From positions 80,872 through 93,296 of the forward strand of contig JAZKIQ010000010.1 of NCBI GenBank assembly GCA_040384765.1: a DNA stretch of 12,425 nt, in the 5' to 3' direction. The stretch is from Patescibacteria group bacterium (GTDB taxonomy: Bacteria; Patescibacteriota; Minisyncoccia; Phycocordibacterales; JBBUBG01). The position numbers and the translations under genes are program-made. The number at the start of each line of letters is the position of its first letter. The first letter of the stretch is position 1. Below, piece after piece: positions 8,493 to 11,353 of the stretch. The notes beneath the pieces are model-generated. The model did not search any database, had not been told where the DNA came from, and worked only from the letters and a program-made list of their open reading frames with translations.

Positions 8493-10871
8493 CTATTCGA
8501 GCTCCTTAAGGTCACCCCAGTCCGCTCCCGCGGATACTTTTGCCGTAAACGGCACGGGAAACTCTGCCACATTCTCCATCACCTCTTTTACCATTTTTGC
8601 GACCGCTGCAAGCTTCTCTTTTTTTACTTCAAGCACCACATCATCGTGCACCTGGAGCAACATGCGCGCATCCTCGCCAAAAGCAGTCGTGAGTGCCTTG
8701 TCCATCTTCACCATGGCCAGCTTCATAATATCGGCGCTTGTCCCTTGGATCGGTGCATTCACCGCCATGCGCACCGCAGCTGCTTTTATATACGGGATCT
8801 TTGAGCGAATCTCCGGAAAGTAGCGGCGACGGCCAAAGTAGGTGGTGGTGTAGCCCGTGCGGCCCGCTTCGGAGGCAACCATATCGATATATGCCTTCAG
8901 ATCGCTAAACCTCTCAAAATAGGCATCGTGATATTTCTCCGCTTCGTCTTTTGATACGCCCAGATTTTGCTTGAGCGCCATCACCCCCATGCCATAGAGA
9001 ATACCGAAATTGAGCACCTTGGCACGGCGGCGCATGTCGACAGTCACCTCTTCTGCCCCTACCCCAAACACCTCCATGGCAACTGTCGTATGAATATCTT
9101 CTCCTCGCGAGAAAGCACCGACGAGCTTGCGATCGCCTGAAAGGAGCGCCGCAGAGCGCAGATCGATCTGCGAATAGTCAGCGGTAAGCAAGAGGTAGCC
9201 CGGCGAGGCTACGAAGGCTTTTCGGATATTTTTCCCAAGCTCCGTCTTGATCGGAATATTTTGGAGATTGGGATCGATCGATGCCATGCGGCCGGTCGCA
9301 GCGCCTATCTGTACAAATGTTGTGTGAATGCGCCCAGCCGGATCGGCAAGCGCACCGAGCGTATCGATATAGGTAGAGAGCAGCTTCTGGTATTCTCGAT
9401 ACTGCATAATCTCATCCACGATCGGGTGCGTCCCCACAAGCTTCTCAAGCTCGGACACCTTCGTGGAGCGTGCACCGCCCGCTGTTTTACGAAGCCCTTT
9501 TGCGGTAAGCCCAAGCTCGTCGAAAAGGACAGCCCCAAGCTGCTTCGGAGAGTTGATCGTGAACTCATGCCCCGCGTGTTCCCAGATCTTTTTTTCAAGA
9601 CGCACAAGCTCTATGTGATACTCCTTCGAAAGCTTCTCGAGGTGATGTCGATCGACCATGATCCCCTGCCGCTCCATCTTGCCAAGCACCGGTACAAGTG
9701 GAAGCTCAATCTCCTCCCACACCCGAGCGAGCCCATCATTTTCGATCCGTTTCAAAAGGAAGGTGAATGCCTCCTCAAGAGTTTTTGCTTTCGTGAGATC
9801 AAAAATATGCGCAGGTGTTGGTGCAGGCTCCGACGGGTCGATCACCGAATACGCAAGCGCCACCTTCTTGAAAAGGTCACTTTTCGTATCGAAATCTGGA
9901 CTGCTCTCTTCTGAACTCTGAACTCTGAACTCTGAACTCTTCTCTCCCAACTCTTCAAGGCGAGAGATGAGGCTCTTAAATCCGAGCTCTTTGGCAAAAG
10001 CCGCAGCCTTTGGCGCATCAAAGAGCTCTCTCCAACTTTTCTCTGGGAGGACAAACTCGATCGGCGCATCGCGCCTAATCGATGCAAGGGTCTTAGAAAA
10101 AAGCGCCTCCTCTTCGCCGTTCTTGAGGAGCTCAACAATCCGATCTTTGATGCCTGCCTCCTTGAGCTTTTCCGGACTCTTTTTTAGGGTCTTGTAGATA
10201 TTCTCGATCGATCCAAAATTGACGATAAGATCGGTTGCTGTTTTCTCGCCGATTCCCGCAATGCCGATAATATTGTCTGACGGGTCACCGCGAAGGCCTT
10301 TGTAGTCAGGCAGCAGTTCTGGCCCAAACCCAAATCGCTCTTTCACCTTTGCCTCGTTGTAGAGGATCGTATCGTTGATCCCTTTTTTAAGCGTGTAGAC
10401 GAGCACCCGATCATCATCAACAAGCTGCAGCGTATCCATATCGCCCGATGCGATGATCACCTGCACCTCCCCTTTTTTAAGAGCGGGCTGCAGCTGCTCT
10501 ACGATCGTGCCAAGCATATCGTCTGCTTCGAATCCGGGCTTTGAATATTCGACAAGGCCAAGGGCGTCGGCAAGCTCGTGCGCTCGAATGAGCTGAGCCA
10601 CAAGCGCCTCATCGGTCTTGGCGCGGCCCGCTTTATACTCTTTATAGGTGTCGTGTCTAAAGGTGGGGCCAGGCAGATCGAAGCACGCAAAGATATAGTC
10701 CGGGTTCATCTCTTTTATGAGCCGCAACAAAAGATTGGTGAATCCGTAAAGCGCCCCTGTTGGCTCCCCTCCCGGTGATACAAAGTCTGGCAGCGCATGG
10801 TAGCCGCGATGAAGAATCGCGTGAGCATCGAGCAAGACGATCTTCTTAGGCGCTGGCTTTTTACCACTCAT
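8493..10871 (-). CDS. polA: DNA polymerase I (5'-3' exonuclease + family A polymerase; 3'-5' exonuclease domain absent)
   Basis: LLDAHAILHRGYHA, GFEADD, SGDMD, LRGDPSDNIIGIAGIGEKTA; TGRMASIDPNLQNIP, motif A DYSQIDLR, motif B RRRAKVLNFGILYG, NAPIQGTSAD, motif C LQVHDD. Start probably ATG 10871, overlapping the tsaE stop. Confidence 0.97.
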   Translation of the reverse strand: MSGKKPAPKKIVLLDAHAILHRGYHALPDFVSPGGEPTGALYGFTNLLLRLIKEMNPDYIFACFDLPGPTFRHDTYKEYKAGRAKTDEALVAQLIRAHELADALGLVEYSKPGFEADDMLGTIVEQLQPALKKGEVQVIIASGDMDTLQLVDDDRVLVYTLKKGINDTILYNEAKVKERFGFGPELLPDYKGLRGDPSDNIIGIAGIGEKTATDLIVNFGSIENIYKTLKKSPEKLKEAGIKDRIVELLKNGEEEALFSKTLASIRRDAPIEFVLPEKSWRELFDAPKAAAFAKELGFKSLISRLEELGEKSSEFRVQSSEESSPDFDTKSDLFKKVALAYSVIDPSEPAPTPAHIFDLTKAKTLEEAFTFLLKRIENDGLARVWEEIELPLVPVLGKMERQGIMVDRHHLEKLSKEYHIELVRLEKKIWEHAGHEFTINSPKQLGAVLFDELGLTAKGLRKTAGGARSTKVSELEKLVGTHPIVDEIMQYREYQKLLSTYIDTLGALADPAGRIHTTFVQIGAATGRMASIDPNLQNIPIKTELGKNIRKAFVASPGYLLLTADYSQIDLRSAALLSGDRKLVGAFSRGEDIHTTVAMEVFGVGAEEVTVDMRRRAKVLNFGILYGMGVMALKQNLGVSKDEAEKYHDAYFERFSDLKAYIDMVASEAGRTGYTTTYFGRRRYFPEIRSKIPYIKAAAVRMAVNAPIQGTSADIMKLAMVKMDKALTTAFGEDARMLLQVHDDVVLEVKKEKLAAVAKMVKEVMENVAEFPVPFTAKVSAGADWGDLKELE
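9909..9940. repeat. CTCTGAA heptamer tandem repeat inside the polA linker
   Basis: ttctgaa ctctgaa ctctgaa ctctgaa ctct, encoding KSSEFRVQSSE. Confidence 0.85.
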
Positions 10872-11292
10872 ATATATGGGTTGTTTCATCCACGAAAGAG
10901 CACTCTACGGAAATCGCATCTGGAGGAATAAGTATTCGAACAATCTCCGGCCACTCAACACATACGATGTTTTTTGGATCGCTCACAATGTCGTGCCATC
11001 CCAAGAGAGCAAGCTCCTGTGGCTCCATGATTCTGTAGGCATCAATATGAATGAGGTGTGCGAACTCACTTTTTGGCAATTTATAAATCTTTTCAATAAC
11101 AAACGTGGGGCTTGTAATCGTTTCCGTTACCCCAAACGCCGCAGCAAGAGCCTGCACAAACGCAGTCTTGCCCGCACCCAGATCTCCCCCGAGCGCAATG
11201 ATCCGTGCTCTATTTGCGGCCGGCCGGAGACCAGCGGCAAACTCCTTTGCGATCACACTGGTCTCCTTGAGCGATTTCGACTCCCGTTTCAT
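10861..11292 (-). CDS. tsaE: tRNA threonylcarbamoyladenosine biosynthesis ATPase TsaE
   Basis: LGGDLGAGKT, ITSPTFVI, HIDAYRI, VEWPE motifs; start at ATG 11292 (alternative 11301). Confidence 0.96.
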   Translation of the reverse strand: MKRESKSLKETSVIAKEFAAGLRPAANRARIIALGGDLGAGKTAFVQALAAAFGVTETITSPTFVIEKIYKLPKSEFAHLIHIDAYRIMEPQELALLGWHDIVSDPKNIVCVEWPEIVRILIPPDAISVECSFVDETTHIYEW

Positions 11293-11319
11293 GGATCTCA
11301 TACTACTATCATTGGAGCA

Positions 11320-11353
11320 AAACAAAAGCGCCCCTCGCGGGGCGCTTTTGTTT
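11320..11353 (-). terminator. Intrinsic terminator downstream of the DUF11 gene
   Basis: Perfect 15-bp inverted repeat AAACAAAAGCGCCCC-tcgc-GGGGCGCTTTTGTTT; GCGA (GNRA) loop on the minus strand. Confidence 0.88.

Follow-up and report, generated by a model that had tools for sequence, protein, structure and literature searches.

A natural DNA polymerase I with aspartate at the steric gate, serine in motif 6 and aspartate at motif C in a Patescibacteria genome

The steric-gate Glu of DNA polymerase I (Pol I) is by textbook account an 'invariant' residue, and it is the first target when the enzyme is engineered to accept RNA or xeno nucleic acid (XNA) nucleotides. Here we describe the polA gene of a Patescibacteria group bacterium (NCBI GenBank assembly GCA_040384765.1), which lies in a stretch of 12,425 nucleotides of contig JAZKIQ010000010.1 (positions 80,872 to 93,296). 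We call this whole stretch the window and use its numbering below. The product, PolA, carries Asp at the gate (D576), Ser at position 718 in motif 6 and Asp at the second carboxylate position of motif C (D750). Judged from its sequence, PolA belongs fully to a natural class of variants in which an Asp gate is combined with Ser/Thr in motif 6 and, in the complete form, with Asp in motif C as well; no description of such a class was found in the literature searched. The gate, 718 and motif C sites co-vary, and Ser718, which was absent from a preliminary description of this DNA, is the strongest correlate of the gate Asp. With about even confidence, we read the three residues as a compensated alternative nucleotide pocket in a single Pol I acting beside DnaE, in which the gate is retained and is probably somewhat looser.

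The gene and its active-site motifs are placed in the window as follows:

8493-10889, minus strand: polA, a stop-free open reading frame (ORF) of 798 amino acids
9156-9179, minus strand: motif A, DYSQIDLR, residues 571-578, aligned to Taq D610 through E615
8991-9032, minus strand: motif B / O-helix, RRRAKVLNFGILYG, residues 620-633, intact, with R620, K624, F628 and Y632
8730-8759, minus strand: motif 6, NAPIQGTSAD, with N711, Q715 and S718 under N750, Q754 and A757 of Taq NMPVQGTAAD
8640-8654, minus strand: motif C, QVHDD, with H748, D749 and D750, aligned to Taq Q782-E786

PolA is a family A DNA polymerase, a bacterial DNA polymerase I, and its motifs are not chance matches. In a Pfam profile search the product scored 464 bits against PF00476 DNA_pol_A (cut-off 34.3). 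It matched 92 PDB sequences (Pol I, theta, nu), and its best relative of solved structure was Taq Pol I (E 2e-161, HMMER alignment). Translation of the ORF and the alignment to Taq, which has no gap near D576, S718 or D750, confirmed both of the substitutions that had been read from the letters, DYSQIDLR and HDD. The GAT codon of D576 (9164-9162) falls under Taq E615, so that Asp stands at the steric-gate position in place of the Glu of DYSQIELR, and codons 748-750 read CAC GAT GAT (8648-8640), with D750 under Taq E786 where QVHDDVVLE of PolA pairs with QVHDELVLE of Taq; S718 is encoded by AGC (8736-8738). Neither the catalytic Asp residues nor motif B are altered, as had also been described, and N711 and Q715 of motif 6 are likewise intact. 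D571 and D749 are invariant in 313 of 313 aligned rows, and in alignment A1 R620 and K624 are invariant and F628 and Y632 nearly so. The gate side chain is not removed, as Asp retains the carboxylate and is one methylene shorter than Glu, and the Ser three residues past the motif-6 Gln is present together with it. In an AlphaFold2 (AF2) model built from a 79-sequence alignment (mean predicted local distance difference test score 93.2), motif A spans a strand (565-572) and a helix from 575, with D576 at the helix start. Motif 6 sits inside a single long helix (699-736) with N711, Q715 and S718 at i, i+4 and i+7, and motif C is the turn of a hairpin of strands 741-747 and 750-756.

The gate Glu proved less constant than the 'near-invariant' of the preliminary description. 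Counts were based on alignment, and eight of 321 sequences without both motifs were removed, leaving 313 rows. Among the nearest 50%-identity representatives (143 of 150 cover both motifs) the gate was Asp in nine, Gln in three and His in two; at 90% identity, six of the 119 closest clusters had Asp and two had Gln. One of 29 genomes of the same order, a member of the same family (G001), had gate Asp. Of 401 genomes sampled evenly across the phylum, 234 were matched by a general motif-A pattern and 24 by an Asp-specific one; with one match judged spurious (G435:C1, DYCQVDFR) and our own genome set aside, gate Asp was present in 22 of 400 other genomes from 12 families, including all four genomes of family f61 and five of family f91. 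Glu is the gate state in about 90-95% of sequences. These surveys contradict the universal conservation of the gate Glu, given as 'universally conserved within A-family polymerases' for E710 in PMC3715850, and since Glu is not universal it should not be used to define family A. Gate Gln (DYSQIQLR) or His (DYSQIHLR) was seen in P0032, P0036, P0051, P0083, P0086, P0167 and P0269 of the protein collection, and one His-gate protein also reads HDQ at motif C.

The Asp gate extends beyond the phylum. When 185,579 species genomes were scanned for DYSQIDLR, with Ser as TCN only, at least 120 loci in at least 120 species genomes matched, from Chloroflexota, Desulfobulbales, Elusimicrobiota and others. 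Among the matches listed, the motif was in frame at 118 of 120 genome_contigs loci; two loci without an in-frame motif and 17 more without one motif were set aside, leaving 101 rows. The same listed matches include 27 from Chloroflexota, 23 from Thermodesulfobacteriota/Desulfobulbales, 23 from Elusimicrobiota and several Patescibacteria groups. Cultured species with the Asp gate include Desulfopila aestuarii DSM 18488, Desulforhopalus vacuolatus DSM 9700 and Desulfobulbus alkaliphilus DSM 24258. In viral contigs (IMG/VR) DYSQIDLR had no match, compared to at least 116 for DYSQIELR. On a FastTree phylogeny of 414 polymerase domains the gate required 23-25 changes, with 18-19 inferred gains and four inferred losses. 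Within our own clade, P0153, P0154 and P0156 (70%, 68% and 61% identity over the polymerase domain) and locus L004 have Asp, and P0155 (65%) has a Glu gate. The gate Asp is thus heritable, recurrent and clade-fixed in the lineage of PolA.

When every column of the alignment was scanned against gate state, position 718, three residues after the motif-6 Gln, ranked first. Ser/Thr was the majority state there in 78% of 18 Asp-gate origins compared to 9% of Glu-gate rows, a difference of 0.69, with 0.44 for the next column. Other columns, such as 742, 592 and 599, co-varied weakly and were set aside. In the unselected sets, 15 of the 16 Asp-gate rows had Ser/Thr718, compared to 23 of the 268 with a Glu gate. 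By crude sister pairs, Ser/Thr718 was gained with the Asp gate 14 times and never lost, with five ties. In an independent-pairs test limited to supported branches, on a tree that omits the three trait columns, 7.9 of 12 pairs went the same way and 0.2 the opposite way (median p 0.008, lowest 0.002). Of the 18 origins, 12 had the gate change and the gain of Ser/Thr718 on a single branch, two already carried Ser/Thr718, and four lacked it. Two fresh sets replicated the coupling: 120 metagenome loci, reduced to 102 rows (four without an in-frame motif, 14 without an aligned motif 6), and 116 viral loci, reduced to 95 rows (10 and 11, respectively). Among the matches listed, Ser/Thr718 was present in 80 of 102 metagenome Asp-gate rows compared to eight of 95 viral Glu-gate rows, counts that are uncorrected for shared descent. 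Within our own clade, an Asp gate is accompanied by QGTS or QGTT, and the Glu gate of P0155 and P0169 by QGTA.

The motif C Asp is rarer. Among close kin HDD is private to our own genome (0 of 119 clusters, 0 of 29 order genomes), the closest relatives reading HDE, and it was found in five of the 143 representatives at 50% identity. Elsewhere it is established: HDD and the Asp gate are fixed together in the Patescibacteria family f61 (four of four genomes), HDD occurs in 11 of 101 genome_contigs and six of 102 metagenome Asp-gate rows among the matches listed, and it is also found in Asp-gate PolAs of Endomicrobia and some Chloroflexota. On an Asp gate, HDD was accompanied by Ser/Thr at 718 in 24 of 24 cases, and with Ala at 718 it occurred in 0 of 71. 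Parsimony on the 414-row tree gave 10 motif-C E-to-D events, seven of which end on an Asp gate, a background that accounts for 27% of the tree length (binomial p 0.006, or about 0.015 minus our own sequence, by hand calculation). We regard the support for co-variation of the gate and motif C E-to-D changes as tentative. A separate combination, HDS at motif C with a Glu gate, was seen in a group of Patescibacteria PolAs (L009 in G035, P0177, P0255, P0259).

Contacts described for solved relatives connect the three sites. In Taq, a water bonded to E615, N750 and Q754 touches the incoming nucleotide at O2 (PMC6125688); in Bst, Q797, R615, E658 and D830 lie near one another and interact electrostatically (PMC10520511); the gate Glu of Pol theta bonds the O-helix Tyr, the motif-6 Gln and an Arg (PMC6158600); and that of Klenow is hydrogen-bonded to the O-helix Tyr (PMC3715850). 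From these contacts, the gate, motif 6 and motif C sites belong to one cluster, and the i, i+4, i+7 spacing places N711, Q715 and S718 on the same helix face.

We propose that PolA, as a 5' nuclease joined to a family A polymerase, would serve in gap filling and primer removal beside the DnaE replicase. Its gate carboxylate, motif-6 Asn and Gln and motif-C Asp would make up a single hydrogen-bond and electrostatic cluster by the sugar and the minor-groove edge of the nucleotide. Shortening the steric-gate Glu to Asp576 would retract the carboxylate toward residue 718, where Ser718, replacing Ala one helical turn past the motif-6 Gln, could re-anchor it through the hydroxyl that Ser and Thr share. 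Asp750, at the second motif-C carboxylate, would be a later, lineage-private step, and the motif C E-to-D change in general a further adjustment that may be possible only on an Asp plus Ser/Thr background. Such an enzyme would be expected to stay an efficient DNA polymerase and may have altered sugar selectivity, its discrimination against ribonucleoside triphosphates (rNTPs) being modestly lowered, not abolished; RNase HII would clear the ribonucleoside monophosphates (rNMPs) that slip past the gate.

Several observations weigh against this reading. First, the partner is not obligatory: 49 of 139 Asp-gate rows overall have Ala or another residue in place of Ser/Thr718, and the Asp-gate rows of Thermodesulfobacteriota (Desulfobulbales) all have Ala there, in 21 of 21 aligned. 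Second, column 718 was found post hoc, and p over random pairings in the independent-pairs test reached 0.18. Third, only helix periodicity suggests that residue 718 touches the gate. Fourth, the sequences come mostly from metagenome-assembled genomes (MAGs), and the sets picked for gate Asp are not random samples. Fifth, D750 depends on one assembly at about 6.6x depth. Sixth, independent pairs gave no significant association of gate with motif C (median p 1 for 313 rows, 0.25-0.5 for 414 rows) in a test that was underpowered; for the earlier suggestion that the two E-to-D changes may co-vary, only the cruder branch-length test (seven of 10 events) is suggestive. Lastly, the searchable literature yielded no biochemical datum on a natural Asp-gate PolA. 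Loci L076, L077 and L152 of the genome_contigs set are examples of the uncompensated Desulfobulbales form, with an Asp gate and Ala718; the three cultured DSM strains named above also have this form and are tractable as test organisms.

The alternative that survives best, though we consider it unlikely, is that both E-to-D changes are neutral conservative polymorphisms, single third-position transversions with no measurable functional effect. The many origins and some reversals (19 gains, four losses inferred) fit this reading, as does the gate Asp of Desulfobulbales without a Ser/Thr partner. E-to-D is also the one tolerated substitution in Taq selections, and E615D keeps activity (PMC4215692, citing Patel and Loeb 2000). 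Motif C itself appears permissive in viral Glu-gate PolAs, in which the last residue is replaced in 45 of 95 rows among the matches listed (E 50, A 20, S 19, D 3, Q 2, N 1). However, the coupling to Ser/Thr718 is strong and replicated, which implies epistasis and, in most backgrounds, an Asp that is less than fully neutral by itself. Glu has moreover been kept in the great majority of sequences although Asp is one mutational step away, and the Asp pattern is missing from the viral contigs that hold the Glu pattern at least 116 times.

More doubtful is the reading given at the outset, in which the Asp gate admits the 2'-OH and makes PolA an rNTP-tolerant Pol I, adaptive in a scavenging cell poor in deoxynucleoside triphosphates (dNTPs). 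Our own genome, 99.8% complete, has no match to ribonucleotide reductase (RNR) of class I/II or class III and only a deoxynucleoside-kinase-like ORF with a sub-threshold match (C10:41166-41636). RNase HII, which the preliminary description had proposed to check for, is present (G000:C1:133225-133782) and would be available for removal of embedded rNMPs; an RNase HI-like ORF covers only profile positions 3-75 of 141. Removal of the gate side chain is known to relax sugar choice in Klenow E710A and Taq E615G (PMC3715850, PMC9738464 and PMC10351887). Against this reading, loss of RNR does not track the gate: class I/II RNR was found in 10 of 23 Asp-gate genomes compared to eight of 28 Glu-gate genomes of the order (strong matches, with five more weak), and NrdD was present in four of four genomes of f61, the family that shares the double change of PolA. 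The proposed link to nucleotide scavenging is thus not supported. The Asp gate also occurs outside this small-genome phylum, in cultured Desulfobulbales and in Chloroflexota, with some contigs of 1.9-3.8 Mb. The carboxylate is retained, and a co-varying Ser/Thr suggests a pocket that is being conserved, not opened. Lastly, a relaxed gate would be costliest exactly where the rNTP:dNTP ratio is highest. The RNR large-subunit matches of the survey were in places repeated or split in very long frames (e.g., 2118 amino acids; G064:C1:781976-787351, G130:C6, G259:C57), which suggests inteins or tandem copies.

Full-text searches of the literature gave nothing useful on E710D or E615D, found the string DYSQIDLR in no paper searched, and returned no mention of an Asp gate combined with Ser/Thr in motif 6. 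Patel and Loeb, in J Biol Chem in 2000, are reported to have had E615D among the Taq mutants that incorporate rNTPs.

It is highly improbable that Asp750 (GAT in place of GAA or GAG) arose by an error in sequencing or assembly and that the gate Asp alone is real: HDD is lacking in the nearest relatives, the DNA is present in one run only and the protein collection cluster holds no second full-length copy of PolA, but a separate assembly of that run matches every base and the Asp/Ser-Thr/Asp triple recurs elsewhere (f61 in four of four genomes, 11 genome_contigs rows, six metagenome rows). A single public run contains the stretch (0.99 of sampled words) and may be the source sample; runs X2 and X3 contain next to none of it. 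A Logan contig of that run (2694 bases, mean word depth 6.6) covers 8493-9939 with no differing letters and no gaps. This compares separately assembled contigs, in which read-level variants are invisible, and since the run is probably the source sample the agreement is not independent of the assembly; it excludes an assembler artefact and leaves a low-coverage base error possible. Such an error at codon 750 is formally possible because its Asp is private to our own genome among close kin, yet fixation of the triple in other lineages makes D750 biologically ordinary on an Asp/Ser-Thr background. The gate Asp is independently backed by the relatives P0153, P0154, P0156 and L004. One member of the protein collection cluster, P0272, is a 52-amino-acid fragment with, by eye, no likeness to PolA.

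The remaining parts of PolA form three segments:

10032-10844, minus strand: 5'-3' nuclease (FEN-like) domain, residues 16-286 (PF02739, E 8.9e-47; PF01367, E 1.7e-24)
9648-10031, minus strand: helical linker, residues ~287-414, in the place of the 3'-5' exonuclease domain, no Pfam match
8511-9647, minus strand: family A polymerase domain, residues 415-793 (PF00476, E 4e-139, profile positions 2-381 of 381)

No Pfam match to a 3'-5' proofreading exonuclease was obtained between the nuclease and polymerase domains. The AF2 model has helices only in this segment, with a disordered stretch at 321-329, and PolA therefore has no proofreading domain. The exonuclease-less layout is common to most relatives of 780-840 amino acids. 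Taq Pol I (PDB 1TAQ, 1BGX and the KlenTaq 3KTQ family) is likewise a 5' nuclease and polymerase without active proofreading, so the 3'-5' exonuclease is no defining feature of the family. Taq and PolA align without gaps through motifs A, B, 6 and C. The two differ at the three sites of interest (E615, A757 and E786 in Taq; D576, S718 and D750 in PolA) and in the linker, as Taq retains a vestigial exonuclease-like domain and the PolA linker is shorter (query 310-369, about 59 residues, compared to Taq 284-407, about 123 residues, over the aligned span).

Other members of the family set PolA further apart. The Klenow enzyme of E. coli (E710) and the Bst large fragment (E658) have the same catalytic residues as PolA, but both carry Glu at the gate and at motif C and a 3'-5' exonuclease domain, and PolA differs in all three. 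The engineered enzymes Taq E615G, Klenow E710A, Pol theta E2335G and Taq E615D are changed at the same position as D576. The well-characterized ones that accept rNTPs lose the side chain (Gly/Ala), whereas the natural variant keeps a carboxylate, usually with Ser/Thr in motif 6. The natural Asp-gate PolAs of P0153, P0154, P0156, family f61, Elusimicrobiota, Chloroflexota and Desulfobulbales all read DYSQIDLR, and most have Ser/Thr at 718, unlike the Desulfobulbales with their Ala.

The gate Asp is thus natural and repeated and travels with a second-shell Ser/Thr, and on an Asp gate HDD is found only with Ser/Thr. This epistatic triad is concrete and can be tested by three point mutations in Klenow, Bst or Taq. 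More tentatively, and as a possibility that we would not put first, the class may be a second natural solution of the nucleotide pocket, with many origins in mostly uncultivated lineages, which alters sugar or minor-groove checking enough for Pol I to insert ribonucleotides or other 2'-modified nucleotides in gap filling; if so, nature supplies a compensated, fully active scaffold like those sought by directed evolution. Should the triad tune sugar selection or fidelity, it would account for a lineage-specific property of repair synthesis and offer ready scaffolds for biotechnology. If it is neutral, the conservation record is still corrected, with a caution against assigning function to MAG proteins on the strength of one 'catalytic' substitution.

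The polA gene is ordinary and intact and lies in housekeeping surroundings, with TsaE, a HIT hydrolase, a SpoU methylase, a Mur ligase and RuvA among its neighbors. It accounts for the only DNA_pol_A match in the genome (822,710 bases, 12 contigs, 99.83% complete). A DnaE-type replicase is also encoded; its match (C1:135909-136694) lies about 2 kb from that of RNase HII on the same contig. A second, stand-alone 5'-3' exonuclease-like ORF of 307 amino acids (G000:C5:69885-70514) is 31% identical to PolA residues 14-221. The TsaE ORF (10861-11325, minus strand) shares 29 bases with the 5' end of the polA ORF, and the protein collection holds a form that begins at a second candidate start, Met7 (792 amino acids, P0152); the true start of polA may accordingly be either the ORF start or Met7. 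At the other end of the window, 3-2225 on the minus strand is taken up by a 741-amino-acid ORF that runs past the window end and matches T4SS-DNA_transf, TrwB and TraG-D_C, domains of type IV secretion coupling proteins.

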